DNA of 64,000 nt from Colwellia sp. (GCA_026196955.1 JAPHTO010000060.1:18425-82424), one strand, 5' to 3'. Counted from the first letter of the stretch, positions 21,184-60,982 are shown. Program-made: numbers and translations. Notes: generated from the letters alone by a model not told the origin.

Positions 21184-21849
21184 TTATTTAGTCAAAATAC
21201 TTCTCGCACCTTTAATAAATTCTTCTTTATCCACATTCATAGGCTCTGGTACAAGAATGCCTTTTTGAACGGCTGGGCGTTGCGCTATTTGTTCAACCCA
21301 ACGGGCTAGATTAGGAAAATCGTCTAAACTGACACCAGACCAATCATGCGTATGTACCCAACACCAATTAGCCATGTCTGCGATAGAATATGCTGCTGTT
21401 AAATATTCACTGTCTTTAAGTTGTGCGTCTAGCACTGAAAAAAGCCTTTTGACTTCATTTTGATAGCGATCAATGACTGGCTGAATTTTCTCAGGGAAGT
21501 AGCGATAAAACACATTGGCTTGCCCCATCATTGGGCCTATTCCGCCCATTTGAAACATTAACCATTGCATTACTTGTGAGCGTTCCTTACTGGTTTGGGG
21601 CAAAAACAAGCCTGATTTTTCTGCCAAATAAATCATAATGGCGCCTGTTTCAAATACAGAAAAGTCATCATTACTTCGATCAACAATCGCAGGAATACGA
21701 CCATTAGGACATAAGGTTAAAAACGCTGCTGATTTTTGCTCGCCTTTCATTAAATCAATGGCATGAACTTGATAGTCCATAGCCATTTCCTCTAACGCTA
21801 CCGAGGCTTTCCACCCGTTAGGTGTCGCTGCTGTGTAGAGATCAATCAT
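21184..21849 (-). CDS. Glutathione S-transferase family protein, YfcG-like
   Basis: From Met33 the protein reads [57 protein letters not shown], very like the E. coli YfcG N-terminus. The tracked start at 21945 would overlap the upstream GST by 95 nt. Confidence 0.8.
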
Positions 21850-21850
21850 C

Positions 21851-22459
21851 TTAGGCACTGTAACTTGGGCGGGCTGAGACTCTTTCATACCAAGCCAATA
21901 AATGGCTATGCTCATCACTGGGGCGTATTTGAACAACACGCGCAAAGTCTATGGCGCAAAGTAAAACAATATCTGCGATGCTAAAGTAATCACCGACAAG
22001 GTAAGTCGACTCTTTCAAATGCTCATTCAGCTCATCAAAGTAAGCGATGGCATTTTTCCCTGACTCTTTACCCCACTCTTCCACAGGCGTCATGCGATCT
22101 TTAAAATAACCTGTGGTGTGTTGAAAGCACATACCAATAGGTAGCATAAAATGAAATTCAATACGGCGGTGCCACATTTCAACTTGCGCTTTTTCTAAAG
22201 GCGTTCGACCCATAAGCGGATTTTCAGGATGTAACTCTTCAAAATAACGACAAATAGCAAGCGTTTCACCAAGGCAGGTGCCATCATCTAATTCCAAAAA
22301 GGGAATTTTAGTGGTTGGATTTTTAGCGCGCATTGCAGGTGATAAATTCTCACCCGCAGCAATATCCACTTCAACATAGTCCATCTCAATGCCTTTTTCA
22401 GCAAGAAAAACACGTACACGCCGAGGATTAGGGGCTTTGTGGGTTTGGTAAATTTTCAT
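21851..22459 (-). CDS. Glutathione S-transferase family protein
   Basis: 202 aa with a thioredoxin-like N-domain ([25 protein letters not shown]) and a helical C-domain. Confidence 0.85.
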
Positions 22460-22577
22460 TTAAGCTATCCTATGTTGTTATGTTATTAATCACCTTATCA
22501 GCATTTTTAAGCGGCATAAATAAGTTTAAAATCTCTAGCTTCTATAAAAAGGCGAAAGATCAACAGCCCCTAAGCTT

Positions 22578-23321
22578 TTATTTACCTAATTGACTATCTA
22601 GCCAACCAACAATATAACGCCCTAATTGTTTATCTTTATCAAGCAATGGATAACCATGGTCGCCACCCTTGTAGGCGATAAATTTACTCTGTTCATTTGT
22701 GGTGGTTTTAAACAACTTTTTCGCACTTTCATAAGTGCCTGTATCTTCCTCTGCAGCAATAATCAAGGTGGGCTTATCGGCCATTATTTTCTTATAACGT
22801 GCTATATTTTCATCACGCTGACCGGAAGAAAAAAAGCCAATAACCTTGATAGGGTTATTCTCTGCTAATGTAATGGCTTGCGAGCCACCACAACTAGCAC
22901 CAACCACACCGACAATACCTTTATCAGAGATTTTGCTCAGTAAGTGTTTATAAGCCAGTTGCACATCACTAGGCCAATGAACAGACATTGCACGCCACGC
23001 TTTGCGGCGCTCATCTTGAGGTAACGCTTGAATTTTCTCGATATTGAATTCATCATTGGTGCTTTCACCAAAACCGCGAAAATCTAAACTTAACGCATGT
23101 ATACCTTGCGCTGACAATTGCTGACCGATCTCGTTATACATACTGCGGTTATAATTACATTGATGTAATAGTAATACCCCTCTATCACTTGTGATATTAC
23201 TTTGATAATAGCTAGCTTTTAAGTCGAAGCCATCGTCTGCTTTAAGTAATAAATCATTCGCCTTACTGGTTAATGTGAATGTAATTAATGTTGCCGATAA
23301 TAATGTCAAAAATAGTTTCAT
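22578..23321 (-). CDS. Secreted alpha/beta hydrolase (dienelactone-hydrolase-like)
   Basis: Signal peptide, nucleophile elbow GASCG, and HG-type oxyanion region (VLLLHQ). Confidence 0.7.
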   Translation of the reverse strand: MKLFLTLLSATLITFTLTSKANDLLLKADDGFDLKASYYQSNITSDRGVLLLHQCNYNRSMYNEIGQQLSAQGIHALSLDFRGFGESTNDEFNIEKIQALPQDERRKAWRAMSVHWPSDVQLAYKHLLSKISDKGIVGVVGASCGGSQAITLAENNPIKVIGFFSSGQRDENIARYKKIMADKPTLIIAAEEDTGTYESAKKLFKTTTNEQSKFIAYKGGDHGYPLLDKDKQLGRYIVGWLDSQLGK

Positions 23322-23513
23322 CTGTATTCCCTTCAGGTTAATTGCCTATCATCAAAGCTATCTAATTGTTAGTGACATTAAAACTATAACGCGCTGAATG
23401 GTTGGTAAATCAGGTTTAATGACCACTCTTTTTACGTATTTTCATTCAAGGTTTTAGAGATGAATAGAAGTTAACTTGGAAAGCATACCAGCTATGATTA
23501 TATTAAGTTAAAA

Positions 23514-23567
23514 TGGCTAAAGGAACTTGAACCCTCGACAACCAGAATCACAATTCAACTCATAGCC
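23514..23567 (-). repeat. Displaced, decayed copy of the tRNA-His 3' half (distal att-like site) plus a conserved element end
   Basis: TGGCTAAAGGAACTTGAACCCTCGACAACCAGAATCACAAT aligns with tRNA-His 32080-32121. The next ~50 nt are homologous to 27964-28015. Confidence 0.7.
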
Positions 23568-23704
23568 TTTTAAAATTATTACTTTTAGTGGTTTATCACG
23601 GTTATTATTGCAAAGAATAAGAACAGAAATAGAGGCTATGGTGTACATCAGCCAACCAACAAAAAAAATACTAATGTGGTTAAGTTCTTATTTTTATAAC
23701 GTGT

Positions 23705-24949
23705 TTACTGCTTTTTGTTACCAATGATCTCCTTGAGAGTATGGATAAAAGTGTTTATCTCTTTCTCATCGTTATAATAATGTACTGAAGCACGTACTAA
23801 ATCTGGAAGTTGTCGCTTAGTAGCATCAATTAACGTGCTTGACGGGCAGCTAGAGCTTACATTTATGTTTTTGCCATGAAGCTGTTCAACTATGCTAGGT
23901 GCTGTAAAACCATCAACAGTAAACGTGACTATTCCACATTTATTCTTCCCTATGTCTTGAACGGTGACACAGGGAATTGCAGATAACATTGTACGTAACT
24001 TTTCAGCCAATAAAACTACAGCACTTTCAATATTTTCAATACCTATATTGAGAGCATAATCCACAGCAGAGCCGAGACCAAGTTTAGCACTATAATTATT
24101 CTCCCAGTTTTCAAATCGGCGAGCATCATTTCTCAACTCATAGCTGGAGGGGCTAGTCCAAATTGCAGACATTAAATCAATCATTGGAGGATGCAGCTTT
24201 TTAATTACGCTTTTGCGTACAAACAGAAAACCAACTCCTCTCGGCCCCCGTAGATATTTTCGACTTGTTGCCGATAGTACATCACACTGAATACTTTCAA
24301 CATCTAAAGGAATTTGTCCAGCTGACTGGCAGGCGTCTACAATATAGAAAATGTTCTGGCGTTTGGTAATGGCGCCTATTTCTTCCACTGGATTGATCAA
24401 TCCTCCATTGGTGGGTACATGTGTCACTGAAACCAATTTTACCTGTTCATCAATCATTCCCTCTAGCGATGAAATACAAATTTCTCCTTCAGTATTTGAA
24501 GGTATAACCTCTATGATGACCCCTTTTTGCTTTGCAACTTGAAGGTAAGCCAAATAATTGGATGCATATTCAGCTTCACAAGTGAGAATGCGATCCCCTT
24601 TTTTAAAGGGAATAGAATAGAAAGCCATCATCCATCCGACAGTTGCATTTTCAACAATAGCGATTTCATCACGATGACAATTAATTAAGCGCGAGATTGA
24701 ATCATATACAGCTTCTATTTGATCTGACATACAATTTGCTGCTTCATATCCCCCAATTGATGCTTCCAATGTTAAATGGTTGAGTTGAGTTTCAAATACG
24801 CAATTAGGCATTAATGAAGAACCAGCATTGTTCAAGTGAATTACATTTTTCTTTCCTTGTGTATCATTAAAAACCGCTTCTTTATCGATTGGCATATTCT
24901 TATCTCTTGTGTTGACTATATAAGTTATTTCACAGGAATATAAAGCCAT
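23705..24949 (-). CDS. Class V aminotransferase / cysteine-desulfurase-like PLP enzyme (start possibly Met19 at 24895)
   Basis: PLP-lysine region SATSRKYLRGPRGVGFLFV and the HLNNAGSS N-terminal motif typical of class V fold-type I enzymes. Confidence 0.85.
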   Translation of the reverse strand: MALYSCEITYIVNTRDKNMPIDKEAVFNDTQGKKNVIHLNNAGSSLMPNCVFETQLNHLTLEASIGGYEAANCMSDQIEAVYDSISRLINCHRDEIAIVENATVGWMMAFYSIPFKKGDRILTCEAEYASNYLAYLQVAKQKGVIIEVIPSNTEGEICISSLEGMIDEQVKLVSVTHVPTNGGLINPVEEIGAITKRQNIFYIVDACQSAGQIPLDVESIQCDVLSATSRKYLRGPRGVGFLFVRKSVIKKLHPPMIDLMSAIWTSPSSYELRNDARRFENWENNYSAKLGLGSAVDYALNIGIENIESAVVLLAEKLRTMLSAIPCVTVQDIGKNKCGIVTFTVDGFTAPSIVEQLHGKNINVSSSCPSSTLIDATKRQLPDLVRASVHYYNDEKEINTFIHTLKEIIGNKKQ

Positions 24950-25012
24950 TTACAAACGATTTTTCTTTTAATAGACTTTACAAAATGTAAAGTAAGCTTG
25001 GGAAACTATAAG

Positions 25013-25942
25013 ATGAAATTGCCGCCACTAACAGCCCTCACCTATTTCAATGCGGCTGCATTACAGTTAAGTTTCAAGGCTGCGGCTAAGCAATTTTGTG
25101 TGACAGAGGGGGCGATAAGCCGACAAATTAAACTTTTAGAAGAATATTATGGTAAACCCCTGTTTGTTCGAACTAGGCGAGGAGTTCAATTGACGGATGC
25201 TGGGCAGCGTTTGATTTCAGTTATCGAACCTGCAATACAGAAGATTTTTCAAATCTCACAAGAGATACGCGGGTATAGTCCACAGTTCACATTGTCAGTC
25301 ACTACTAGCTTTGCTATACGTTGGTTGTTACCACGATTAGCAAATTTCGAAGCTACTCACCCTAATTTTCCAATAAATATTCAAGCAGCTAAAAATCCTC
25401 AAAAAATACAAAGTGTTGATTATGGAGCAAGTATTATTTATGTATTAGGAGATCCATATCACTCTGAAGCTACTATCCCAGCTAATGGGCATTTTGTCAT
25501 GGCGGAGTGGCTTATACCGGTGTGTTCACCAGCACTTTTAGACGAAGGAAAGTCGATTTCTCCATCATCTATGGAGGAGTTTAGGTTGATATTAAATGAG
25601 TCGAGCGGACGAGATTGGCGCCTTTGGTTAGAGTGCACTCCCACGGCAAAAGTACAATTTGATACAGCTATCAGGCTTGAGCATGACGATACAGCGATAC
25701 AGGCGGCTGTCGCAGGACATGGAATCGCTTTAGCTAATGTTGCTTACATAGATAATGAATTAAAAATGGGGAGTTTAGTTCCCATAATTGACCATCCTCC
25801 AGTTGCCATCGGTGCGCATTATTTTATTTGTAAACCAAGTTGTTTTGAACAACCTCATATTAAAGCGTTTAGTGAATGGCTTATGAAAAGTGCAGCCGAA
25901 TGCCTACCTCAAAATGACAAGATACCTAAGTACGGTGAATAA
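25013..25942 (+). CDS. LysR-family transcriptional regulator (GcvA-like), divergent from the aminotransferase
   Basis: N-terminal HTH LTALTYFNAAALQLSFKAAAKQFCVTEGAISRQIKLLE. I use the ATG at 25013 rather than the TTG at 24998. Confidence 0.9.
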   Translation: MKLPPLTALTYFNAAALQLSFKAAAKQFCVTEGAISRQIKLLEEYYGKPLFVRTRRGVQLTDAGQRLISVIEPAIQKIFQISQEIRGYSPQFTLSVTTSFAIRWLLPRLANFEATHPNFPINIQAAKNPQKIQSVDYGASIIYVLGDPYHSEATIPANGHFVMAEWLIPVCSPALLDEGKSISPSSMEEFRLILNESSGRDWRLWLECTPTAKVQFDTAIRLEHDDTAIQAAVAGHGIALANVAYIDNELKMGSLVPIIDHPPVAIGAHYFICKPSCFEQPHIKAFSEWLMKSAAECLPQNDKIPKYGE

Positions 25943-26128
25943 CATGACTATCAGAAATTTTGTAGCTGAAAAATAATTCCCTTCTTAATGAACCAAACTA
26001 TAAGTTAAAAACTAGCATGAATATATTAAAGTGGGTTAGTGAAACAAACCCATATGAAATTTCAATTGTAAGCTATTATTCAAAATGCACTTAGCAGCAT
26101 AAATGCAATGTTTGTACATTTATAATAA

Positions 26129-26263
26129 GTTTCTTGTTTTGCTTTATCATCTTATATAATTGCCCTCCAACGACTTGAAACTTTGAAAAAATATGCTGAT
26201 AACCATGACAAATCTATCAGTCAAATTGTACGAGAATCGTTAAAGACTTTGTTAAATAAATAA
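26129..26263 (+). pseudogene. Start-less remnant of a ribbon-helix-helix (CopG/antitoxin-like) gene
   Basis: The open frame ...YIIALQRLETLKKYADNHDKSISQIVRESLKTLLNK* has no in-frame ATG/GTG start upstream of the RHH-like segment. It is followed by a perfect 11-bp hairpin (26276-26303). Confidence 0.3.
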
Positions 26264-26404
26264 AAGCGGTGAAGTAGTGATAATCCAATACTGGATTATC
26301 ACTAAATTAGACCATTTAATTCATGTATTGTCGCAATTGTTCAAGACATATTGATTATCAATCTATAACCTTCTTCATACTTTAACCAATGAGGAGGCAA
26401 CGCC

Positions 26405-26794
26405 TTGAAATTTAAATACACGATACTTTATGTTGATGATGTTATTGAAACATTCAATTTCTATGAAAAAGCATTTGGCCTTAAAAAGAAAATGCTCCAT
26501 GAGAGTGGAGAGTATGGGGAATTAGATACTGGCAGTACGATACTTTCATTTTCCTCTCTCAAGCTCATGAAAGAACTAGGAAAAAACCCTGCTAAACCTA
26601 ACTTAAAAGCCCCTACGTTTGAAGTGGCTTTTGAAACTGATAATGTAAAGACTGCACTGTCTAAAGCACTAGAGGCGGGGGCTTCACTCGTGCAAGATGC
26701 TACGGATATGCCTTGGGGGCAGACAATAGCTTATGTAATCGAGAACAATGGTTTTTTAGTTGAAATTTGTACGCCTGTAGCTTCTCAGGCATAG
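26405..26794 (+). CDS. VOC (glyoxalase/bleomycin-resistance/dioxygenase) family protein
   Basis: 129 aa, TTG start preceded by GAGGAGG, and a VOC-like pattern (KYTILYVDDVIETFNFYEKAFG ... GFLVEICTP). Confidence 0.8.
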   Translation: MKFKYTILYVDDVIETFNFYEKAFGLKKKMLHESGEYGELDTGSTILSFSSLKLMKELGKNPAKPNLKAPTFEVAFETDNVKTALSKALEAGASLVQDATDMPWGQTIAYVIENNGFLVEICTPVASQA

Positions 26795-27426
26795 CCTTTG
26801 TCATTTAGCTGCCTGATAATAGCTGGAGAATTTAATACCTGTACTGGTGTTAACCCAAACCAGCGCTGAAACTCTCTATTCATATGAGACTGATCAGAAA
26901 AGCTGTAGTTTTCCGCATGATCAACTAGGCACACACTTTGGCTTAAACTTCTGGCAGCTTTTCTAATTCTAGCTAATTGTAACCAATAACTAGGTGTTCT
27001 CTTGGTCTTACTTAAAACCAGTCGCTGTAAAGTTCTGGTGCTGACCCCAAGTTGAGCCGAAATTTGTTTTATCGAACCCATCTCACTAGCAAAACACGTT
27101 AGTGCTTCCTCAATTGAGCTTTCGGTAGAAATAAAATCACCTATAAAGCCTTTCACATCTTCAGCATGAAGTTGTTTTGTTTCAATGTAGTCTAATAACT
27201 CACGCTCTTTAATTTCTGCTCCAGGACTTAAGCGAAAGCCAATATAATTGCAGCTTTCTTCTATCTGAACAAACTCGGGGCGGTCGTATAGAGGTGACAC
27301 TAACCAATTTGGTTTTTCATTTTCCAACGTTTTGACTATCAAATCACGACAACCATCAGGAATGACAATTGTCGATGTTGCGGCATTAAAGTCTGCACTC
27401 CAAATAGAAATCAGGTTATCGTTCAT
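26785..27426 (-). CDS. AraC-family transcriptional regulator
   Basis: C-terminal double HTH (ISAQLGVSTRTLQRLV ... FSDQSHMNREFQRWFGLTP). Its 3' end overlaps the VOC gene by 10 nt (convergent). Confidence 0.85.
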   Translation of the reverse strand: MNDNLISIWSADFNAATSTIVIPDGCRDLIVKTLENEKPNWLVSPLYDRPEFVQIEESCNYIGFRLSPGAEIKERELLDYIETKQLHAEDVKGFIGDFISTESSIEEALTCFASEMGSIKQISAQLGVSTRTLQRLVLSKTKRTPSYWLQLARIRKAARSLSQSVCLVDHAENYSFSDQSHMNREFQRWFGLTPVQVLNSPAIIRQLNDKGYA

Positions 27427-27917
27427 TTTATTAAGCTAAATATTATATTACAGTCTTGTCTTCAAATTCACAAAGTTCTTCAATAATGAAAGTACCACAC
27501 TAATAGCTGGCTTCATAGCGACTGCTTCGAGCTTTGTTGTCTATCAAGGTAAAGACAGGTCAGCCCCTTTCGGATACTAAAAATAGCTCAAAAAGTTATT
27601 CATATTTATCTCTAATGGCGGAACTGCTGCCATTATTTCATTAATCAAACTGCAACGGAGCTAGACAGTAAAATGAATGTGTCACCAAGCTCTATCTCTA
27701 ATTGGCAATGTTATGAAAAGATCAAAGTTATAACTATTAATAACTTTTGTTGGTATTTATTTACTTTTCGCCCGCACAGGAGTTGAATATGGATTTGTTG
27801 CTTTATCTAAAATTAAGAGTATAAAAACGTTAAATTAAATAAGGGACAAGTAGCTAAATGCCGCATGGTTATTGAACTAATGGATAGCTTAATAATTTTT
27901 CGAGGAGATATAAAAGA

Positions 27918-27976
27918 TGGGGTGGCTAAAGGGACTTGAACCCTCGACAACCGGAATCACAATTCAACTCCTAGCC
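27918..27976 (-). repeat. Displaced copy of the tRNA-His 3' half (internal att-like site between the two cassettes)
   Basis: 27918-27963 matches 32076-32121 at 44 of 46 positions. The 2 differences are compensatory in the T stem. The sequence then diverges into an element end shared with 23556-23607. Confidence 0.8.
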
Positions 27977-28092
27977 TTTTAAAGTCATTACTTTTAGTAG
28001 TTTATCATTGTTATCAGTGTTTATGTTTTTTGCAATTATTAACTTTTGATGGTTATTAATGTATATCTATAGGCACAGAATACGCACAGGAC

Positions 28093-28124
28093 TTTGAAAC
28101 CTAACACCTTAGTTAGGTTTCAAA
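28093..28124. terminator. 13-bp hairpin downstream of the S8 peptidase gene
   Basis: TTTGAAACCTAAC (28093-28105) pairs with GTTAGGTTTCAAA (28112-28124). The T-rich tail is only on the plus strand, so its role as the minus-strand terminator is uncertain. Confidence 0.35.
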
Positions 28125-28162
28125 ATTTAATTTTATTAATATCTGAGAAATCAATATTATAA

Positions 28163-30652
28163 TTAAACCACCACTTCTACAGGCACTGTTAATCCCACTT
28201 GTATAGAAACAGGAGTATATAGATCTACCGTCTGATCTGGTGTAGTAATCGACACAATCAAAGAGTAACGAGTCGCTTTATCCCATTTACCTAAATGACT
28301 ACGCTCTCGCCACCATCCAATCGTTGGCGATATACCTATTAAGTTAGAAGCAGCTAAATCAGCTGCTGTCCCTTTCCATATATCAGAATGAATAGATCCC
28401 CTATCTCTAGCTTGACTACCTAGTAGCCAATGATCGCTAGGGCTGCTAGTACCAGAACCATTTTCATCTGAATCTCTAGCCGCTTTATTAATTCGTTTTA
28501 AAAATTCATCTTTTGACTCGCTAGGGGAATTTAGGTCAAATCTAAGCGCATGTGAAGCATATCTATACCTATTTTTCCAACCAATTTCCCCGGGACCAGC
28601 CTCTATGAAGTATGAGAGCGTTATACGCATTTCTACAGGAGTACCATGAGGTAAATCTAAAAGTGTTTCTTTAGGCCAAGGCAGTTCGTGAAGGTGCATG
28701 TCCTTAGTGCGATATCCACCTGTAGGCTTTTTATCAAATGGTTGTAATGTCGATTGATTTATAAGTGTTAATGAATTTTTAGCGCTATGTAGAGCTCTTT
28801 CTAGGTCTGGTATACCATAACCGCAGACACTTAAAAGATGCTTGTAACTAGTTTTACTTTCATCATTAATGAATTGTCTTTTTAATGTATCGGGCCAAGA
28901 AGCACTATGAACTAACAAAGCTCTTATGGTTTCAGGCCAAAATTCTGGAAATGCTGAATTTAATTTACCACTCATCCATGCTAGTTGAGCTGCAGCAGCA
29001 CTTGTCATACTGAAAGTACTAAAATGTGCTTGTTGTGGATTATAAAAAGTAGAAAGTAAACTCAAATCATCACACTCAGTTACAAAACTACTTTCGTCAA
29101 TAGCAAGGTTACCACCCTCCATTACCAGCTCAGGTTTTATAGGCCATTTATTTTCCTCCCACGTAGAGGATGTAGTAGAAAATGGTGAAAGACCAAATTC
29201 AGGAGCTACACTGGAATATCCATTTAAAGTTGCATCAGTTATTTGGGTTAATGTCGTATACGCGCCAACAGTTAAAGCATTCCATGATTGAGCCGGATCA
29301 TGAACAGAGTCAGTTAACTGAATATCAGGATAACGAATAGCGGCATCTGTGATGCTTGCAGTAGTGTTTCCTGCACTTAGTATAATTAAACGTTGAGTAT
29401 CGTCATTAGCCCCTGATGAAAGCTGATCAATTTGAGCTGACCATGAGGTCGGCCTTCCTCTATCTCTCGTATCTTCTGCTGTAATAGCCATGCAAAAGCT
29501 GCGCTGCCTATTAGGAGCTTGAATTTCAGCACGGCTAACAGCTTGAGATGTAATATATCCCCATATATTTGCAGTATTTTGCTCTGGCGGCTGAGGTAAT
29601 ATTTTGACTGATTCTAGATTATGGGTTAATTCAATTCGTGAGGTAGAGTTTAAGGCGTCAATTAAGTTTCCATAACCACTTATTCCAGCCATTAAAGTGC
29701 CATGTTTATCATGGTCATGCTTACCCCATTCTTCATTAACGGTATGGCAATCATTATCAATTAATAAATCACGTATTAATGGATGGCCATTATTTACTCC
29801 AGTATCAAGTATACAGACACTAGCCTCTGAACTAAGGTCTATATTAATACGACCAAGTAGATCATCTACCCACTCACCTTGATCTTTATTATTTAAAGTC
29901 ATCCAGAATTCAGCGGTGATTTTAGCTTTACGATACTCTGCAATGTGATCAGATAGTTCTGATAACTTTTCTAATTGAGCATTATTAGCATAGATAACTT
30001 TAACAGCTCGTTCGGGGAATTTAATAATGCCTTCTTTAAACTGAATTTCTTGCTCACCTAATAGTGATTCAAATGCGCTGATAACCGTCAAATTATCACT
30101 ACTCAACCAAACCTCAATCCATTCAGGGGTATTTGTAGGTATCAAATCATATGCATCACTCCAAAAAGAATCCACTAATAATGCTTTGCGAATGTTTGAT
30201 ATTGTATTAATTAAAGCCGCATTCTTAGGTTTGTCTTTGGAGGTGTTTACATGAAGATAATCAGAAACTTTATCAAGAAAGAAATTCTTTTGAGCATTAG
30301 GAATGTATACAGTTGCGTATTGAATGCGAGTATTGTTATCAGGATTTGTAATTTCACGAACATTTAGTAATCGAATTTTCTTAGGCAAATTCTCTAAGCT
30401 TTTTAATTCTAATTCAGAGTCAGGATCACTAATAAATTCTAGATAAATACCGTTTCGAGTAGCATGGCTCACGGCACTTTCATTTTCTGCTTCTTCCCAA
30501 GCATTATTTAATTGTATTTGTAAATATGCACCGTGGGTTGCTCGATCGCGGCTAGGAGGCGGTTTACCTTGTCCACGCCTTGTTGTTGTATAATTGCTCG
30601 TCTCAGGGGCTTGAGTTAAAACTATATGGGGGAGTCTTCCTTCGGTCATCAC
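28163..30652 (-). CDS. Large signal-less (predicted cytoplasmic) S8 subtilisin-family serine peptidase, IetS-like (likely start ATG at 30649)
   Basis: Catalytic residues occur in canonical S8 order: D283 (CILDTGV), H317 (KHGTLMAG), N429 (LSAGN), S551 (SMTSAAAAQ). There is no signal peptide or TM segment. AAGGA lies 6 nt upstream of the ATG at 30649. The ~270-aa N-terminal and ~230-aa C-terminal regions are unassigned. Confidence 0.85.
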   Translation of the reverse strand: MMTEGRLPHIVLTQAPETSNYTTTRRGQGKPPPSRDRATHGAYLQIQLNNAWEEAENESAVSHATRNGIYLEFISDPDSELELKSLENLPKKIRLLNVREITNPDNNTRIQYATVYIPNAQKNFFLDKVSDYLHVNTSKDKPKNAALINTISNIRKALLVDSFWSDAYDLIPTNTPEWIEVWLSSDNLTVISAFESLLGEQEIQFKEGIIKFPERAVKVIYANNAQLEKLSELSDHIAEYRKAKITAEFWMTLNNKDQGEWVDDLLGRINIDLSSEASVCILDTGVNNGHPLIRDLLIDNDCHTVNEEWGKHDHDKHGTLMAGISGYGNLIDALNSTSRIELTHNLESVKILPQPPEQNTANIWGYITSQAVSRAEIQAPNRQRSFCMAITAEDTRDRGRPTSWSAQIDQLSSGANDDTQRLIILSAGNTTASITDAAIRYPDIQLTDSVHDPAQSWNALTVGAYTTLTQITDATLNGYSSVAPEFGLSPFSTTSSTWEENKWPIKPELVMEGGNLAIDESSFVTECDDLSLLSTFYNPQQAHFSTFSMTSAAAAQLAWMSGKLNSAFPEFWPETIRALLVHSASWPDTLKRQFINDESKTSYKHLLSVCGYGIPDLERALHSAKNSLTLINQSTLQPFDKKPTGGYRTKDMHLHELPWPKETLLDLPHGTPVEMRITLSYFIEAGPGEIGWKNRYRYASHALRFDLNSPSESKDEFLKRINKAARDSDENGSGTSSPSDHWLLGSQARDRGSIHSDIWKGTAADLAASNLIGISPTIGWWRERSHLGKWDKATRYSLIVSITTPDQTVDLYTPVSIQVGLTVPVEVVV

Positions 30653-30674
30653 TTATCCTTGAATAAAAATCCTA

Positions 30675-31643
30675 TTACCGCCCTAAATACGCTCCATGAC
30701 GATGATTTATTGAATCTAAAACTTGAGTGGCTTTTACTTTGTTATGGTCACTTAGTACGGCAACTTTAATTGCATCTTCACATGCATGTGCTATTTCTGC
30801 GTGACTTAAACCATCGCTATTTTTAAGCACCCTTTTCCACGCGAAATTTGAATCAATAAAACGACCAAGAACATTTTCAATAAGATGCTTACGCTCTTCT
30901 TCTTGTGGCTCTTGATAATGAAGAACATCATCAAAACGACGGAAAAGTGCATGATCAAGCAATTTAGGGTTATTGGTTGCAGCTACAATAAAACTATCAG
31001 ATTGATCCTGTTCAATAAATTGTAGAAATGCATTTAAAACCCTACGCATTTCACCAACATCATTGTCCATAGTTCGTTCGCTACCTATTGCATCAAACTC
31101 ATCAAATAGATAGACACCACTCTCCTGTTTAATTAAATCAAATATCTGACGCAATTTAGCACTTGTTTCACCCATAAACTTAGTAACTAATCGGTCAACT
31201 TGAATAATATGAAGTGGTAAATTTAATTCAAAAGCCAAAACTTTAGCTGTTAAGGTTTTTCCCGTTCCTGGTGGGCCTGATAGTAAAATTTTTCTTCTAT
31301 GGTCAAGTCCGTGTGATTTGAGTTTACCTCTTTGTCGGTACTCATGGAAAACGCGTTCGATACGTTGCTCCATTTTAGTTTCCATAATTAAAGCTGATTT
31401 AGGTATGTTAGGTGCTTCAGTTAAAACTAGATTCTTTAAATCCTGAGGAAACGATATTACTTTCAAAGCTTTTCGAGAGTCCAAAAGCTTTTTGTCAACT
31501 AAATCACGGATCTCGTGAGCAAGAGTTGCATGCCCTTGTTTAGCTTCATGGGCAGCAACCTGCAGCGCTATAGTTAAAAAACGCTCCTTATCTTCACTAG
31601 TATACGAGCGAATTAGTGATTTTATTTGTTCTGCCGTTGCCAT
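30675..31643 (-). CDS. Classic-clade AAA+ ATPase, IetA-like
   Basis: Walker A GPPGTGKT (123-130), Walker B VYLFDEFD (177-184), sensor-1 AATNN (221-225), arginines in FRRFD (234-238), and a ~110-aa helical N-domain. It lies 22-25 nt upstream of the S8 gene on the same strand. Confidence 0.85.
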   Translation of the reverse strand: MATAEQIKSLIRSYTSEDKERFLTIALQVAAHEAKQGHATLAHEIRDLVDKKLLDSRKALKVISFPQDLKNLVLTEAPNIPKSALIMETKMEQRIERVFHEYRQRGKLKSHGLDHRRKILLSGPPGTGKTLTAKVLAFELNLPLHIIQVDRLVTKFMGETSAKLRQIFDLIKQESGVYLFDEFDAIGSERTMDNDVGEMRRVLNAFLQFIEQDQSDSFIVAATNNPKLLDHALFRRFDDVLHYQEPQEEERKHLIENVLGRFIDSNFAWKRVLKNSDGLSHAEIAHACEDAIKVAVLSDHNKVKATQVLDSINHRHGAYLGR

Positions 31644-32075
31644 GATCTTTTAACCCGATTTGTAAGTACTGATATCATACCTAATAAATATATACTTATG
31701 TATTAAAAGTTATAAACATTTATAGCCGATCAGTGTTAGTCAATATGGTCTTGTTTGTAGATTTTGTCGCTAAAATAATGAAATCCATTTTGCTTGGAAT
31801 TTAACCCTTTTTCCCGAACCATATACACAAAAGAGAAAATGGCAGAGCGAGTTAACTGCAATAATTGCTCTAAATGATCAATAAAATCAGCCTCTTTAAT
31901 AAACGTAATATCATCTTCCGCACAGGATACGCACAGGAATAGGATATGAATTTGGTGTTTTATCTAAAAATTAGAGTACAAAAAAGTTGAATTAAATAAA
32001 GGGGAAAATAACTAAGAACTGCGCGGCTATTGACCTGATAGAATATTTAAGAAATTTTTTGAGGGAGTATAAGAG

Positions 32076-32152
32076 TGGGGTGGCTAATGGGACTTGAACC
32101 CACGACAACCGGAATCACAATCCGGGGCTCTACCAACTGAGCTATAGCCACC
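32076..32152 (-). tRNA. hisT-tRNA: tRNA-His (anticodon GTG), intact, with G-1 and encoded CCA
   Basis: The reverse complement reads GGTGGCTATAGCTCAGTTGGTAGAGCCCCGGATTGTGATTCCGGTTGTCGTGGGTTCAAGTCCCATTAGCCACCCCA, nearly identical to E. coli tRNA-His. The anticodon loop is TTGTGAT. Confidence 0.95.
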
Positions 32153-32191
32153 ACAGAGTTTACTTAGAGCGCCTATTGATAAGGCGCGGAG

Positions 32192-32221
32192 AGTATATTG
32201 CATTTATGCGTATTTTGACAA
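32192..32221 (-). promoter_or_regulatory. Candidate sigma70 promoter of tRNA-His
   Basis: On the minus strand: TTGTCA (32221-32216), an 18-nt spacer, TATACT (32197-32192), then the GC-rich discriminator CTCCGCGCC. This sits ~35 nt upstream of the tRNA 5' end. Confidence 0.45.
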
Positions 32222-32284
32222 GAAAAATCTTCCCTTTTGGTTGTATTTATACGCTGTTGTTTCTGTTTTACAAAATTTGTGCAG

Positions 32285-33184
32285 CTAATCTGCAACGCCA
32301 GCTATATTTTCATCTAAAAAGTCTAAGAAGACACGCGTTTTAGGGGAAACAAGATCTCGCTTTAAGTAAATGGCATAGGTAGCACTGAGTTCTTCATATG
32401 GACTAAAGACATGCTCAGGCATAACTTGGCTTATCGAACCATTTTCTAACTCCTTTTTAATAGCCCAAAAAGGCATTAATGCCAGTCCCGCATCATTTAA
32501 TACTAGCTGTTTTTGACCATTTACCGAGTTAACTGAAATACTTTTATTAATGGTTAGTTTTATTCTTTCTTCAGCCATTAAAAACCAATCTTTCCAACGG
32601 GAATAACTGTATTGAATACATTGATGGTCTATTAAGTCTTCTGGGTTAAGAGGTGTACCTTTGCTAGCTAAATATTGTGGGCTAGCACACAATAAAAAAT
32701 TATTATAAGCCAATCGTTTTGCAATCATAGATGAATCAGGTAATCGACCACTGCGAACCGCCACATCAATATTTTCTTCAACAAGATCAACAACACGCTC
32801 AGTTAACTCAACTCTAACATCAATATCTGGGTACAATGTCATAAACTTGGAAATAAGTGGTAGCACAACACTTTCGCCAAACCCTACAGTCATGCTTATT
32901 TTTAGCGTACCTCTTGGCCTTTCTTGCAAGTCATTAACGACTCTTTTAGCTTCATCAAACTCAGATACAATACGCTGAGAAAACTCATAATATTTATGCC
33001 CTGCTTCTGTTAATCCGGTATTTCTGGTGGTTTTATTCAAAAGACGAACACCAAGCTCCTGTTCAAGAACCGCTAATTGCCTAGAAATAGAAGAAGGCTG
33101 CACATCAAATATTCTACTGGCTTCAGAGATGCTACCCGTCTCTACCACGCAGTTGAAATACAATAACCGATTCAACGAACTCAT
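32285..33184 (-). CDS. LysR-family transcriptional regulator
   Basis: HTH LNRLLYFNCVVETGSISEASRIFDVQPSSISRQLAVLE. It is transcribed divergently from the oxidoreductase gene. Confidence 0.9.
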   Translation of the reverse strand: MSSLNRLLYFNCVVETGSISEASRIFDVQPSSISRQLAVLEQELGVRLLNKTTRNTGLTEAGHKYYEFSQRIVSEFDEAKRVVNDLQERPRGTLKISMTVGFGESVVLPLISKFMTLYPDIDVRVELTERVVDLVEENIDVAVRSGRLPDSSMIAKRLAYNNFLLCASPQYLASKGTPLNPEDLIDHQCIQYSYSRWKDWFLMAEERIKLTINKSISVNSVNGQKQLVLNDAGLALMPFWAIKKELENGSISQVMPEHVFSPYEELSATYAIYLKRDLVSPKTRVFLDFLDENIAGVAD

Positions 33185-33362
33185 TTTTCTCTCCTATGTA
33201 ACCTTATTATTACCTGAACTTATACTTTCACCACATTGACCAGTATTGTCCAAAAGACAAATGTTATTTGCCTGTTAGGTGGTTGGTTGCTCTATTAGCA
33301 AGAGATAGAATAGCTTCACTAAAACAAACTATCAAATCAACAAACAAATAAAGAGTAATATT

Positions 33363-34340
33363 ATGAAAGCAATGATCATTAAAGAAATAGGCAGTAGTGA
33401 AGTTTTCCAAATGTCTGAAAAAGTGAAGCCAGTAGCTAAACCTGGCCATATGGTTGTAGCTGTAAAAGCAACGAGTGTAAATCCTATTGATACTATGCTT
33501 CGCTCAGTTGAATTGCCTTGGTCAGAAAACTTACCAGAGATACTACACGGTGATGTTGCAGGCATTGTTATCGAAGTTGGTGCAGGTGTGGCTGATTTTA
33601 AGGTTGGTGACGAAGTCTACGGAATGGCTGGTGGTATTAACGGTACTGATGGTGCGTTGGCTGAATTTATGTTGGTTGATGCACGATTAATGGCTCTAAA
33701 ACCGAAAACATTATCGATGAAACAAGCCGCAGCCCTACCGTTAGTTGCCATTACTTCCTATGAAGCGCTTGTTGAAAAAATGAATGTTAAGGCCGGTGAT
33801 AATGTGCTTATTCATGGCGCTGTTGGAGGAGTTGGCCACATCGCTGTTCAGTTAGCAAAAGTGCTTGGCGCAAATGTAACCTCAACTTACTCTCCAGCTA
33901 ATGAAGCATTAGCTAAAACAGTAGGTGCGGATAATTTAGTTGATTACACCACAGAGTCTGTTTCTGATTACGTACAGTCATATACTGGCGGTGCTGGCTT
34001 TGACAAAATCTTTGATACCGTTGCAGGTGATAATATTGAAAAGTCATTTGAAGCAGCTAAATTCAATGGTCATGTAGCCACAATATTACCAATTTCTGAT
34101 CCACTACAAGTTGCACTTAAGGGGTTATCTTTTCACAGTGTTCTAATGCTTATTCCATTATGTCACGGCGTTAACCATGAATCACATGGCCGTATTCTTA
34201 CAGAGATTGCAGCGCTGGTTGATGCTGGTAAAATTACTCCAATTATTGACCAAAGTGATTATTCAATATGGGAAGTAGCTAAAGCGCATGATTTACTCGC
34301 GTCAGGTAAAGCGGTAGGCAAAATCACCTTAACAGTTTAG
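33363..34340 (+). CDS. Zinc-type alcohol dehydrogenase / NADPH:quinone oxidoreductase (MDR superfamily)
   Basis: 325 aa, GroES-like N-domain (FKVGDEVYG), and Rossmann motif GAVGGVGHIAVQLAK. Confidence 0.9.
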   Translation: MKAMIIKEIGSSEVFQMSEKVKPVAKPGHMVVAVKATSVNPIDTMLRSVELPWSENLPEILHGDVAGIVIEVGAGVADFKVGDEVYGMAGGINGTDGALAEFMLVDARLMALKPKTLSMKQAAALPLVAITSYEALVEKMNVKAGDNVLIHGAVGGVGHIAVQLAKVLGANVTSTYSPANEALAKTVGADNLVDYTTESVSDYVQSYTGGAGFDKIFDTVAGDNIEKSFEAAKFNGHVATILPISDPLQVALKGLSFHSVLMLIPLCHGVNHESHGRILTEIAALVDAGKITPIIDQSDYSIWEVAKAHDLLASGKAVGKITLTV

Positions 34341-34381
34341 GTTTTACAAAGACTGACAGGTTCTGAAATCGGGTTATTAGT

Positions 34382-34466
34382 ATCACAATCCGAGATTATA
34401 ACAACTGAGCTATAGTCACACTAAATTTACTGTAGCGTCACATGATGAAGTGCTGAGAGTATATTT
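34382..34466 (-). pseudogene. Decayed copy of the tRNA-His 5' half plus its promoter region
   Basis: ATCACAATCCGAGATTATAACAACTGAGCTATAGTCACACTAAATTTACTGTAGCG...GAGAGTATATT aligns with 32115-32199, roughly four-fifths identical by eye. The D-stem and acceptor are broken. Confidence 0.55.
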
Positions 34467-34645
34467 CATCTAGTGAAAATAGCTTACCATCTAACCCTCA
34501 CAAGTAATAAACTTAACGCCGTCAATTTCAAATTCAGTTTCTTCATCCTCAAAATTTTATCATTTTATTTTGAGCGTCGTTTTTAACAAAATTCTCCACT
34601 TTTTGTTAAAATCAATAGACAAGCTATTACAACAGGGTTTTCACT

Positions 34646-35176
34646 ATGTCTTTAGAATCAATTACAGCGCAAATAAAAGCACAAGGTGAAAAAATTCCAC
34701 CGGTGGAGTTATGGGATCCTGATTATTGTGGCGAGATGGATCTAACCATAAAAGCCAATGGCGACTGGTTTTATGCAGGCACAATTTTTAAACGACCTGC
34801 GCTAGTTAAACTACTATCTTCAGTACTAAAAAAAGAAGGTGATGAGTTCTTTTTAGTCACTCCCGTTGAAAAAATTAAAATCACCGTTGATGATGCGCCT
34901 TTTGTGTTGACTCAATGGTCTTGGCAAGATGATAACCAAACCATGATGCTTGTTAGTAATAACGTTGGTGATAAATTTACCTTAGATGCTAATCATCCAA
35001 TTATCATCAATGAAGCTGGAGAGCTATACGTCACTGTACGCCGCAATTTACTAGCGAAAGTGCACCGCAATATATATTACCAATGGATAGATTTGGCGAA
35101 GGAAGTAACGACTAAAAAAGGCACTGAATTAATCTTTACCAGTGCCGATTGTCATTTTTCTTTGGGGGTTATTTAA
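34646..35176 (+). CDS. DUF1285-family protein
   Basis: 176 aa; the pattern LWDPDYCGEMDLTIKANGDWFYAGTIFKRPALVKLLSSVLKKEGDEFFLVTPVEK matches my recollection of DUF1285. Confidence 0.6.
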   Translation: MSLESITAQIKAQGEKIPPVELWDPDYCGEMDLTIKANGDWFYAGTIFKRPALVKLLSSVLKKEGDEFFLVTPVEKIKITVDDAPFVLTQWSWQDDNQTMMLVSNNVGDKFTLDANHPIIINEAGELYVTVRRNLLAKVHRNIYYQWIDLAKEVTTKKGTELIFTSADCHFSLGVI

Positions 35177-35236
35177 AAGGCGCTTTGGCAAGCAGTGATC
35201 TTAGCTCATAGTAAGGTACTGCTTGTCAGTATGTTA

Positions 35237-36607
35237 TTAAATAACGCGAGAGAAACGCTGTTGATTAACATGCTTTTTCATATAGGCATCAAAACTCATA
35301 CAAATAATACGAATCAGTAGACGCGCTTTTTGATCAACTCTTATAAACGTAGCGGCATTTTCAACTAAACCATCATCGATGAAAGTATCTAATAACGGTA
35401 AGTCCTCAACAAAATACTCATCAAAGTTAATACCATATTTTTCATTGATCGCTTCTTTATCTAGATAGAGGTTACACATTAGCTCACGAATGACTTCACC
35501 ACGTAAAATATCATCATCATTTAAGCTAACACCACGCTCAAGTGCATGCTGTTGATTGTCTATCGCTTCATAATAGCTTTTCAAATCTTTAATGTTTTGA
35601 CCAAATGAGCGACCAATGCTACTAATTGACGAAACACCAAGCCCCAATAAATCACAACCGCCTTTGGTGGTATAGCCTTGGAAATTACGGTGTAGGGTGC
35701 CATTATTTTGGGCAATTGACAGCTCATCATTAGGTTTTGCAAAATGATCCATGCCGATAAACTCATAACCATAATCACACAGGGTTTCTATCGATAATTT
35801 CATTAATGCAAATTTTTGCTTTACGTCTGGTAGCCATTCATCACGCAGTTTACGTTGAGCAGCAAACCTGCTCGGTAAATGAGCATAGCTAAACAATGAA
35901 ATACGATCGACATCCCACTCATGCGCTTTGTCTAAGGTTTTTTTGAAATTCTCTAGCGTTTGATGCGGTAATCCGTAAATCAAATCAATATTAATCGACT
36001 GAAAGCCTACCGCTTTAGCATGACCTATAAAGTCACCAATAAATTGAGTAGATTGCACGCGGTTAATGGCTTCTTGCACTTTCAAGTCTAAATCTTGTAC
36101 ACCTAAACTTAAACGATTAAACCCTAGAGAAAACAAATGCTCTGCGAGATCCATTTCTATTTCACGTGGATCAATTTCAATACTCATTTCTAGATCATCA
36201 GAGAAATCAAATTTTTCTTTTAGCAATTCTACTAATGTGGTGATTTGTTGATGCGTTAAAAAGCTTGGTGTGCCACCACCCCAATGCAATTGCTTCACTT
36301 TATATTCAGTAAATAATGGCGCTTGCAAGGCAATTTCTTGTGCTAAATATTCAAGGTAGGTATCTGCTTTGTCACGATGACGCGTGATAACTTTATTACA
36401 GCCACAGTAATAACAAAGGGTGTGGCAAAAAGGGATATGAACATACAAGGATAATTCACGATTAGCAGAGTCGTTCACCGCCTGAATAAAATCATTATGG
36501 GTAAAATCGTCATGAAACTCTAGTGCGGTTGGATACGAGGTGTACCTTGGCCCACTAGTGTTATATTTACTGAGTAATTGAGGATCGAAAAATTGACTAA
36601 CTTGCAT
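35237..36607 (-). CDS. hemN: Oxygen-independent coproporphyrinogen III oxidase (radical SAM)
   Basis: 456 aa, CxxxCxxC cluster motif (PFCHTLCYYCGC), and yihI-hemN synteny as in E. coli. Confidence 0.95.
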   Translation of the reverse strand: MQVSQFFDPQLLSKYNTSGPRYTSYPTALEFHDDFTHNDFIQAVNDSANRELSLYVHIPFCHTLCYYCGCNKVITRHRDKADTYLEYLAQEIALQAPLFTEYKVKQLHWGGGTPSFLTHQQITTLVELLKEKFDFSDDLEMSIEIDPREIEMDLAEHLFSLGFNRLSLGVQDLDLKVQEAINRVQSTQFIGDFIGHAKAVGFQSINIDLIYGLPHQTLENFKKTLDKAHEWDVDRISLFSYAHLPSRFAAQRKLRDEWLPDVKQKFALMKLSIETLCDYGYEFIGMDHFAKPNDELSIAQNNGTLHRNFQGYTTKGGCDLLGLGVSSISSIGRSFGQNIKDLKSYYEAIDNQQHALERGVSLNDDDILRGEVIRELMCNLYLDKEAINEKYGINFDEYFVEDLPLLDTFIDDGLVENAATFIRVDQKARLLIRIICMSFDAYMKKHVNQQRFSRVI

Positions 36608-36639
36608 GATTTTTACCGCTGATTTTACAATTGCTCGGT

Positions 36640-36680
36640 ATTATACACCATTATCGCAATTGGGTATTGATCAAACTCAA
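36640..36680 (-). promoter_or_regulatory. Candidate class II FNR-dependent promoter of hemN
   Basis: TTGAT-N4-CTCAA (36667-36680) matches 9 of 10 positions of the FNR consensus. It is centred ~30 nt upstream of a perfect TATAAT (36645-36640, minus strand), i.e. about -41 from the expected start. Confidence 0.5.
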
Positions 36681-36712
36681 GCTCGTTAGTCATTCTTTAA
36701 AGGTGACTTAGG

Positions 36713-37024
36713 TTATTCAGCACATTGAATGCATTTTTCAGCCGCAGGTTGTACTTGTAGACGCTGTTGGCCAATTTCATCACCGCAAGCTTGGCAGATG
36801 CCATAGTTACCATTTTCCATTCGTGTGATGGCATTTGATAAATGCTGTATTTCAATTTTTGCTTCTGATTCAAGCGCATTGAGTACTTCGTCATTTTCAC
36901 GCTCGCCCGCCTGCTCTGCCCAATCAGCATCTCTGCCGCCAGCAAAATCTTTATGAATTGAGCTAATACGGTTTTGTAGTTCAATAATACGTTGGGTGAA
37001 TTGTGATTTTAATTGCTCAGTCAT
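36713..37024 (-). CDS. DksA/TraR-family C4 zinc-finger protein
   Basis: 103 aa, coiled-coil N-terminal part, and C-terminal CQACGDEIGQQRLQVQPAAEKCIQC. Confidence 0.85.
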   Translation of the reverse strand: MTEQLKSQFTQRIIELQNRISSIHKDFAGGRDADWAEQAGERENDEVLNALESEAKIEIQHLSNAITRMENGNYGICQACGDEIGQQRLQVQPAAEKCIQCAE

Positions 37025-37081
37025 AACTGTTACCTCAAAAACAAAATGTCATTCCAAGTAATAATTTAACCCCAGAATGAA

Positions 37082-37576
37082 CTAGGAAGATTGACTCAGT
37101 ATACTCATTCTTTCCGTAGTATATTGTTGAAGTAGATCAAGATCTGACACTATTTCTTGATGTAATTCTGCAACTAAGGTCATACGTTGATAATCTTCTT
37201 TCATTCGTTGCTTTTTCTGTAATTTCTTTCGCTCTTCTAGAATCGCTAAATGTTTTATCTCATTGTATAACTTAAATATAGCAGGAAATTGCTGATCTAG
37301 CTCACTGCTGGTTTTAAGCGAATCAAGCAGCACTGATAATCGCCAACATCCTTCATCAAACTCACACTGCTCTTCTTTCATAGCGCGCGTTATTAATAAA
37401 ACACTCGACAATACCTTATGGTCGTGTTGCGCAAGGGCTTTTTGATGTGCTAATTCAGCTTGTTGTTGTCGTTGCTTTTGCTGCGCAAGTTGACGCAATA
37501 AACTGCCAGCATAAAAGGCTAATACCGCGATAATAACAACGCCTAATATTAGGGCATAAAACCAATAATCAGTCAT
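37082..37576 (-). CDS. Membrane-anchored hypothetical protein (DUF2489-like)
   Basis: N-terminal TM helix and a Q-rich helix. Conserved position next to yihI. The family assignment is from memory only. Confidence 0.5.
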   Translation of the reverse strand: MTDYWFYALILGVVIIAVLAFYAGSLLRQLAQQKQRQQQAELAHQKALAQHDHKVLSSVLLITRAMKEEQCEFDEGCWRLSVLLDSLKTSSELDQQFPAIFKLYNEIKHLAILEERKKLQKKQRMKEDYQRMTLVAELHQEIVSDLDLLQQYTTERMSILSQSS

Positions 37577-37585
37577 GACAAAGCC

Positions 37586-60765: not shown

Positions 60766-60948
60766 AAGAAAAACAAGGCAAGGAAGCCACGCAAAGTAGA
60801 CCGAGGAAACAGACAGAAAGCTGTTAAAATAGAAGAGCCCCCACTACATCTAAATTTGGCAGTCCCGCTGTCATAGGTTTCCCGTTAGACCGGTAACTTT
60901 GCGTCTCTAGTTTTCACTAGATTTGCCCTTGTCGAGCTTTAGCAGCTC
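60766..60948 (-). ncRNA. Candidate ~180-nt structured small RNA of unknown family
   Basis: A GC-richer island in an AT-rich spacer. It forms a long imperfect hairpin on the minus strand: CAAGGGCAA/TTGCCTTG, ACGCAAAGT/ACTTTGCGT (9 bp), ACCG/CGGT, GGAAAC/GTTTCC, GACAG/CTGTC. The 3' arm runs into TTTTTCTT, and a promoter lies just upstream. Confidence 0.4.
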
Positions 60949-60954
60949 GAGAAC

Positions 60955-60982
60955 ATTATAAGTCATGGTTTTAAATTGTAAA
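60955..60982 (-). promoter_or_regulatory. Near-consensus sigma70 promoter facing the structured region
   Basis: On the minus strand: TTTACA (60982-60977), a 16-nt spacer, TATAAT (60960-60955), preceded by a T-rich UP-like tract. Confidence 0.45.

Follow-up and report, generated by a model that had tools for sequence, protein, structure and literature searches.

Recombinase-free, att-bounded cassettes at the tRNA-His anticodon loop of a Colwellia genome and their possible kinship with pipolin-like islands

Introduction

How do genes that bring no recombinase of their own come to be stacked between pieces of a transfer RNA gene? The question is raised by a 64,000-nucleotide stretch of DNA from Colwellia sp. 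(GCA_026196955.1, JAPHTO010000060.1:18425-82424; hereafter the window, with positions counted from its first letter), in which the tRNA-His gene is surrounded by cargo genes and by displaced fragments of itself. A first-pass annotation had described two tandem cassettes, X and Y, on the 3' side of this gene and attributed them to related elements integrated one after the other. Here we show that three recombinase-free cassettes bounded by att-type sites, X, Y and a further one that we call Z, meet at a single anticodon loop. Comparison with the same site in related genomes leads us to favour accretion by site-specific recombination, with an integrase supplied by islands of the pipolin type.

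Results

The tRNA-His gene and its displaced pieces

The only tRNA that ARAGORN predicts in the window is a minus-strand tRNA-His(GTG) at 32076-32151, which the Rfam tRNA model also scores at 68 bits. Its nucleotides 31-76 (32076-32121) recur on the same strand at 27918-27963, with 44/46 positions identical (nhmmer E 2.7e-8), and once more at 23509-23554 (87% over 46 nt, nhmmer E 2.7e-4; 37/41 in the well-aligned part, 23514-23554), as the first-pass annotation had reported. The former copy marks the junction between X and Y; the latter, the oldest and decayed, closes the outer end of X. The 5' half of the gene (32114-32151) is repeated at 34382-34419 with 84% identity. All four pieces have only ATCACAAT (32114-32121) in common, which is the anticodon loop, flanked by the stem CCGGA/TCCGG. 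The junctions are built like att sites of the anticodon-loop class, in which the block of identity ends in the loop and the stem serves as inverted core sites, and they combine integration at a tRNA with flanking direct repeats, as pipolin integrations do. The geometry of successive integration suggested earlier fits these data, once the crossover is moved from the extreme 3' end of the tRNA to its anticodon loop. Williams is said to have described this loop, in 2002, as the classical crossover site of tRNA-targeting tyrosine integrases.

The only difference between the copy at the X/Y junction and the intact gene is a compensatory pair in the T-stem, so this copy is an undecayed alternative allele and not a mutated duplicate. 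The intact 3' half reads ATGGG...CCCAC and both displaced 3' copies read AAGGG...CCCTC; the intact half therefore came with Y, and no duplication in place is involved. These alleles support the successive integration of two related elements, X presumably having inserted before Y.

The 5' half that recurs beside a decayed promoter reveals a further cassette, Z, previously missed, which lies 5' of the gene. Together, the displaced half (34382-34419) and the decayed original promoter (34434-34472) occupy 34382-34472 on the minus strand (79% over 90 columns, score 68 against a shuffle maximum of 28, nhmmer E 0.025), 227 nt from a DUF1285 gene (34646-35176, plus strand; Pfam) that is the chromosomal anchor on this side and is conserved in the 49 loci described below. 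In three loci (L009, L050 and L057), the intact tRNA-His lies at about this distance from DUF1285, which identifies the remnant as the site that the gene first occupied. Since the displaced half and old promoter bound Z, the working promoter and 5' half of tRNA-His were imported. The present gene would be a composite, with its 3' half from Y and its promoter and 5' half from Z. Z spans 32152-34381, and both of its ends can be identified, the distal arm in decayed form.

The arms and their repeats

X and Y are each framed by a tRNA-proximal and a distal arm. The proximal arms, at 27755-27917 in X and 31905-32075 in Y, align with 81% identity over 141 columns (27773-27917 with 31930-32075), reach a local score of 110 against a maximum of 33 in 1000 shuffles, and are recovered by a four-sequence arm profile at nhmmer E values of 1e-42 to 1e-45 (1.8e-42 for X, 6.9e-45 for Y). 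The distal arms, at 23555-23660 in X and 27964-28130 in Y, are 88% identical over 51 nt (23555-23605 with 27964-28014; score 72 against a shuffle maximum of 31), and a profile finds that of X at E 5e-20. Homology noted in the first pass, roughly three-quarters identity by eye over ~155 nt on the low-coordinate side of the tRNA pieces and a match of ~50 nt on the high-coordinate side, is thus borne out, and the worry expressed there, that similarity might be insignificant beyond the tRNA fragment, is removed by scores far above those of the 1000 shuffles.

Both arms of Y contain a tandem repeat with an 11-bp period. In the proximal arm this is GCACAGGATACGCACAGGA (31920-31938), composed as GCACAGGATAC-GCACAGGA; in the distal arm GCACAGAATACGCACAGGA (28073-28091), composed as GCACAGAATAC-GCACAGGA, is intact and is followed by a hairpin. 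The motif GCACAGrATACGCACAGGA (GCACAGrrTAcGCACAGGA) is found in the window only at 28073 and 31920, where chance alone would give 0.06 occurrences. In X, the distal arm retains a degraded repeat, GCAAAGAATAAGAACAGAA (23610-23628), and the proximal arm a single CGCACAGGA (27773-27781), one unit having been lost. The proximal arm of Z, which together with the working tRNA promoter occupies 32152-32300 and matches the corresponding arm of locus L004 with 91% identity over 245 nt, carries a different tandem repeat of the same period, TGCAGCTAATCTGCAAC (32277-32296; TGCAGCTAATC-TGCAAC). What remains of the distal arm of Z (34341-34381) weakly resembles the "arm B" of related loci, a tentative assignment, as the arm-B profile stays below significance. 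The repeats of 11-bp period are probably arm-type binding sites for an integrase of the P4/SXT type, and Y would carry such repeated sites on both arms, as expected of the att sites of tyrosine integrases. The ends of Y, which show no decay, suggest that this cassette is young and structurally intact; those of X and Z point to ongoing decay.

The window comes from a metagenome-assembled genome (MAG), and a chimeric assembly could have created the X/Y junction by joining variants X and Y of two strains through their shared 46-nt repeat. A second assembly of the same organism, GCA_026193635.1, reproduces 21782-25529 and 30608-38065 at 99.97-100% identity; it is interrupted between 25529 and 30608, a gap that includes 27.9 kb, so the junction is carried by the present assembly. 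However, two positions distinguish the intact from the displaced 3' halves, whose flanks are 81-88% identical; this leaves exact overlaps of ~20 nt, too short for usual assembly k-mers. We consider a chimera highly improbable, and even if one had formed, each cassette would still be an att-flanked unit without integrase.

Absence of a recombinase

Open reading frames (ORFs) of at least 129 aa in X, Y and Z match, by Pfam, cargo families only and no recombinase. At the scale of the whole window, tblastn with seven tyrosine integrases and four island core proteins gave noise only, and an integrase profile matched none of the six-frame ORFs of at least 40 aa. The earlier statement that the units lack a recombinase therefore extends to all 64 kb, and the overlooked gene that its author had thought conceivable inside the units is not among these ORFs. 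Nor does the window contain fragments of integrase, ParA-like, DUF2787 or orphan core genes; the IntSXT-type integrase, DUF2787 and orphan core genes expected of a pipolin were sought in it by tblastn and are absent. No integron integrase is found in the window, and the ends of X, Y and Z are tRNA halves, not attC sites. Polymerases are lacking among the Pfam-annotated ORFs at 524-23321 and in X, Y and Z, no PolB query having been run against the window. Because no integrase is encoded in the window, the cassettes are non-autonomous. X and Y show two features expected of a cis-mobilizable element (CIME), att-type sites (tRNA half-copies plus arms) at both ends and the lack of integrase, excisionase and transfer genes.

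We reconstructed the predicted circle junction of Y, attP_Y, as ...GAGGGAGTATAAGAG-TGGGGTGGCTAATGGG...GGAATCACAAT-TCAACTCCTAGCC...; among plasmids and phages its tRNA part alone finds matches. Three patterns representing arms and circle junctions matched nothing in viral contigs. Exact-sequence look-ups of the X, Y and Z cargo proteins in other arrangements returned only the same two assemblies or nothing.

The hotspot in related genomes

To compare occupancy of the site, 49 loci, mostly from Colwellia species, were fetched with DUF1285 as anchor. They reach 10 kb from it, so that the distal ends of large islands lie beyond them. The distance between tRNA-His and DUF1285 varies from 0.2 kb to more than 10 kb, and the content of the site differs in every species between conserved flanks; none of the genes of X, Y and Z or of the left flank of the window recurs in any of the 49 loci. 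The arms do recur. The tRNA-proximal arm of X and Y adjoins tRNA-His next to unrelated cargo in L009, L020/L052 and L051. In L009, a Schlafen/AlbA_2 protein and an insertion sequence form a 4.2-kb unit between two full tRNA copies, and a 192-nt direct repeat spans the entire tRNA. The cargo of L020, read by eye from translations, comprises a putative TetR regulator, an EamA-type transporter and a cupin; that of L051, read in the same way, comprises a putative LysR, DJ-1, response regulator and histidine kinase in a 5.5-kb unit closed by a decayed 3' half. A metagenome scan for the proximal arm joined to the tRNA yielded two loci only, one of them from the same genome as L020.

The geometry of Z has counterparts as well. 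Displaced 5' halves occur in L004, L006, L024, L026 and L049 and are placed, with respect to the tRNA promoter, as that of the window is; they adjoin DUF1285 in all of these except L049. To each is joined arm B, ~270 nt of conserved non-coding sequence (L004 9346-9744; L006 2090-2482; L024 9343-9728; L026 2-390; L049 5508-5913 and 1495-1657), whose conservation equals or exceeds that of the neighbouring DUF1285 coding sequence. A TGCAAC-type repeat, as in Z, is present on arm B and on the proximal arms and is confined to loci with 5'-side cassettes. L004 contains a bounded unit of 4.8 kb with only a GGDEF protein and a pilin-like protein, and L024 contains many gene fragments. In the bounded small units, X, Y, Z, L004, L009 and L051, neither an integrase nor a core-gene fragment was detected. 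Six bounded cassettes outside the window lack an integrase, and none was detected in the other units described in this section. From these alignments, the window arms belong to related arm types that occupy this hotspot in many Colwelliaceae.

Several further features of these loci deserve mention. Bounded integrase-less units measure 4409 bp (X), 4158 bp (Y), 4215 bp (L009), 4127 bp (L049), 4833 bp (L004) and 5523 bp (L051), and Z measures 2268 bp; the mode near 4.2 kb could be coincidence or a size constraint. Beside the anticodon stem, arm B holds an inverted copy, GGTCGTGGGTAT, of a 9-mer of the tRNA itself, ACCCACGAC. Just downstream of the intact tRNA-His, L039 (6441-6500) and L050 (~9600-9700) contain palindromic junctions, CGGAATCAC-yAG-TGATTCGGTCGTGG, in which a 3' half and its reverse complement meet at the anticodon loop, a structure reminiscent of recombination between inverted core sites. 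A tRNA-Pro follows tRNA-His in eight Colwellia loci (L005, L008, L010, L022, L028, L031, L032 and L036), and there is none in the window. Two other derivations of the arms were rejected: local alignments of the distal arms of X and Y with a 5' half plus promoter, and of arm B with a 3' half plus tRNA-proximal arm, are no better than shuffles. The arms are not known or structured RNAs either, since Rfam returns only tRNA and arm B has a weak consensus fold (-15 kcal/mol over 349 columns).

Species-specific content between conserved flanks might equally be expected if the arms were conserved chromosomal sequence and cargo had been swapped, after DNA uptake, by homologous recombination anchored in tRNA and arms, with no integrase in recent events. 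Arm-like sequence indeed lies downstream of tRNA-His/tRNA-Pro in the otherwise native-looking loci L032, L016, L005 and L036, and the 192-nt repeat over the whole tRNA in L009 could come from a Campbell-type crossover. However, homologous exchange replaces DNA and does not stack it, and it does not make half-tRNAs that share an endpoint in the anticodon loop and are each attached to a specific second arm. The repeat is moreover found on both arms of Y, including the one never beside an intact tRNA, and integrase-bearing islands use the same site. Homologous recombination is, in our view, a very unlikely account of the cassettes.

Integrase-bearing islands at the same site

The first-pass annotation had proposed a search for a tyrosine integrase associated with the same arms, and such integrases are found in other genomes, with CACAGrATAyGCACAGGA beside tRNA-His in Colwellia sp. 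BRX8-9 and in a Thalassotalea MAG. The latter (L040) encodes, 3 kb from tRNA-His, a P4-type integrase (Arm-DNA-bind_3 plus Phage_integrase) that belongs to a large family with homologues of 60-100% identity in Colwellia, Thalassotalea, Shewanella and Pseudoalteromonas. In five contexts (L054, L057, L060, L063 and L064), the integrase is part of a conserved module consisting of a 65-aa gene, a ParA-like gene, the integrase, two orphan genes, DUF2787 and a ~50-aa gene, followed by variable and often defensive cargo. A second integrase occurs in L054, L063 and L064, and the pipolin-like core of this island family pairs such an integrase with Xis. L063 and L064 encode a PolB assigned by Pfam PF03175 (PolB_2) only, no NCBIfam model having matched, and L060 encodes a PolA-type polymerase. 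The orientation of the module is opposite between loci.

Four of these contexts, L057, L060, L063 and L054, lie at the DUF1285/tRNA-His hotspot. In L057 (Colwellia sp. BRX8-9) the order is integrase, cargo, a third arm that we call arm C, tRNA-His and DUF1285. Beside tRNA-His, arm C of L057 and L060 contains CACAGAATATGCACAGGA, one to two mismatches from the repeats of the window. L054 belongs to the same contig as L049 and starts with a 5' remnant plus arm B. The Shewanella island L064 sits after a tRNA-Arg-His-Pro-Pro-Pro cluster, and its arm matches the profiles of both the tRNA-proximal arm and arm C, with the two repeat types ~90 nt apart. Judged by domain content and repeat motifs, autonomous islands with an arm-binding integrase thus use the hotspot of the cassettes and share motifs with them. 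One cargo unit stands in tandem with a possible helper: in L054 (1283-4112, equal to L049 2300-5129), a gene of a gasdermin-protease family and a 417-aa partner form a 4.1-kb unit between two copies of arm B that directly adjoins the integrase-bearing island.

The published core of gammaproteobacterial pipolins has the order IntSXT, orphan genes, DUF2787, WYL, IntP2 with Xis, and piPolB (PMC11551731). The gene order of the integrase-bearing relatives agrees with it. Pipolins integrate at tRNAs and form tandem accretions, and 99.8% of their integrations affect the 3' end of the target gene (PMC11551731).

Cargo of the cassettes

X carries the class-V aminotransferase (23705-24949, minus strand), LysR (24998-25942, plus strand), VOC/glyoxalase (26405-26794, plus strand) and AraC (26785-27426, minus strand) genes named in the first pass, all recovered by Pfam in a cargo block at 23705-27426. 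Where the VOC gene begins (26364-26528), Rfam reports a weak resemblance to group II intron domains (25.6 bits, gathering score 34.5), probably due to chance. The AAA+/S8 pair reported for Y is identified by PADLOC as the anti-phage defence system IetAS: IetA, the AAA+ ATPase (30675-31643; PADLOC E 9.8e-77; Pfam), and IetS, the subtilase of the S8 peptidase family (28163-30652; PADLOC E 1.6e-37; Pfam), are adjacent on the minus strand with 22 nt between them. The closest IetA homologue (78% identity) lies at an unrelated chromosomal site, with no tRNA called among the genes listed there. A search of the arms for small ORFs or gene fragments gave nothing convincing except one open frame of 60 codons that lacks a good start (EDDITFIKEADFIDHLEQLL...; 31736-31919, minus strand). 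It separates the arm of Y from IetA and may be a gene fragment. The cargo block of Z (32285-34340; Pfam) consists of a LysR gene (32285-33184, minus strand) and a Zn-dependent dehydrogenase/quinone oxidoreductase gene (33363-34340, plus strand). Elsewhere in the window, an intergenic stretch of 213 nt (60782-60992) is 91% identical to L043 4681-4892, at the tRNA-His hotspot of another Colwellia MAG, and may be a small repeated or mobile sequence.

Discussion

Based on the above data, we propose that site-specific recombination stacked the cassettes here and that they are CIME-like, non-autonomous derivatives of a pipolin-like island family, a reading to which we assign a probability of about 0.6. 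X, Y and Z would have been spliced into the anticodon loop of tRNA-His by recombination of the tyrosine-integrase type. X would have entered first and Y second, both on the 3' side, each bringing a new copy of nucleotides 31-76 and displacing the previous one outward, and Z would have entered the 5' side with a new promoter and a new 5' half. The cassettes would bear both att arms of an island family; its autonomous members share the hotspot and encode, inside a pipolin-like core, a P4/SXT-type integrase with an arm-binding domain. Units of the form arm-cargo-arm, having no integrase of their own, may thus have travelled, or could travel, by means of the integrase of a co-resident island.

A number of observations weigh against this proposal. 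The arms of the window and arm C of the Colwellia and Thalassotalea islands share repeat motifs but no full-length homology, and no distal att site was found, within reach of the loci, for the integrase-bearing islands L040/L060 and L057. The helper integrase or island for the cassettes was not found, the search of the source genome having covered the 64-kb window, and the action of this integrase family on these arms is deduced from sequence. Neither an excised circle nor an empty site turned up in our searches, which included the viral-contig scan and the look-ups. The X/Y junction is supported by one MAG assembly, X and Z are visibly decayed, and L054/L049 contains an internal arm copy without a core, so that at least some cassettes are dead.

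The last of these points would also be expected if complete integrase-bearing islands had integrated serially and each had then lost its integrase and core by deletion in place, leaving fossils that never moved alone and cannot do so now. The ends of X and Z (the 87% identity of the outermost tRNA copy, the degraded repeat at 23610-23628, the repeat unit lost from the proximal arm of X, the 84% identity of the 5' remnant), the gene fragments of L024 and the coreless arm copy of L054/L049 all agree with such a history. Degenerated elements and scattered partial tRNAs are usual in tycheposon islands (bioRxiv 10.1101/2020.12.28.424599), and tandem accretion of pipolins with deletions has been reported (PMC11551731). 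On the other hand, none of the six bounded units named above retains a trace of integrase, ParA-like, DUF2787 or orphan core genes, X and Y keep both arms, and the ends of Y are undecayed; repeated clean deletions that spare both arms every time are less parsimonious. For these reasons we lean towards arm-cargo-arm units served in trans, and we judge that their origin as fossils in place is somewhat unlikely.

A bolder extension of our proposal is that tRNA-His serves Colwelliaceae as the site of an integron-like cassette economy. Units of ~4-5 kb, built as arm-cargo-arm and lacking a recombinase, would be inserted and excised in trans by the arm-binding integrase of pipolin-like islands, would exist in two versions, one carrying the 3' half and the other the promoter and 5' half, and would shuttle defence and regulator-enzyme modules between species. 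We regard this generalisation as doubtful.

Tandem att-flanked remnants at tRNA genes are familiar. Less familiar are clean integrase-less units with conserved arms that recur across species, their tie to pipolin-like islands, which is not described in PMC11551731, and 5'-side insertions that replace the tRNA promoter and 5' half (cf. PMC11551731). The window also offers a detailed case of a defence system, IetAS, and small regulator-enzyme modules deposited at a tRNA hotspot of a psychrophilic marine bacterium. Should the cassettes be served in trans, the contribution of pipolin integrases to gene flow would extend beyond the transfer of their own element.

The closest parallel is provided by the CIMEs, for which Pavlovic, Bellanger, Puymege and colleagues reportedly described accretion and mobilisation at tRNA-Lys or fda in streptococci; the name is also used in ICEberg 2.0 (PMC6323972) and in the IME review (PMC5704250). 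Like the cassettes of the window, CIMEs have attL- and attR-type flanks, lack integrase and transfer genes, stack in tandem at one att site and are kin to integrase-bearing elements at that site, a kinship that shared repeat motifs suggest for the cassettes. They differ in that the presumed helper here is a pipolin-like island and not an integrative and conjugative element, in that the host is a marine gammaproteobacterium, and in the second, 5'-side geometry that swaps the tRNA promoter; for the cassettes of the window, mobility is a proposal. With pipolins (Mateo-Caceres and Redrejo-Rodriguez 2024, PMC11551731), the integrase-bearing relatives at the hotspot share core order, tRNA integration, defence-rich cargo and tandem accretion, whereas the window holds cargo and arms only, with no integrase or DUF2787 found and no PolB among the annotated ORFs. 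In the tycheposon islands of Prochlorococcus, growth starts at a tRNA and proceeds through repeated integration events (Hackl et al., bioRxiv 10.1101/2020.12.28.424599); like the window, these islands have partial tRNAs between units, mostly material without integrase, and adaptive or defensive cargo; they use other integrase and replication modules, and their leftovers are unbounded, whereas the units of the window keep both conserved arms. Integron cassettes are likewise small, promoter-poor or self-contained cargo without recombinase, stacked and dependent on an integrase encoded elsewhere, as we propose for the window, but here there are no attC hairpins, adjacent IntI or attI, and the site is a tRNA anticodon loop with lambda-type arms. 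Whether the cassettes are shuttles served in trans or fossils formed in place, they fall within a known kind, that of CIMEs and accretion islands.

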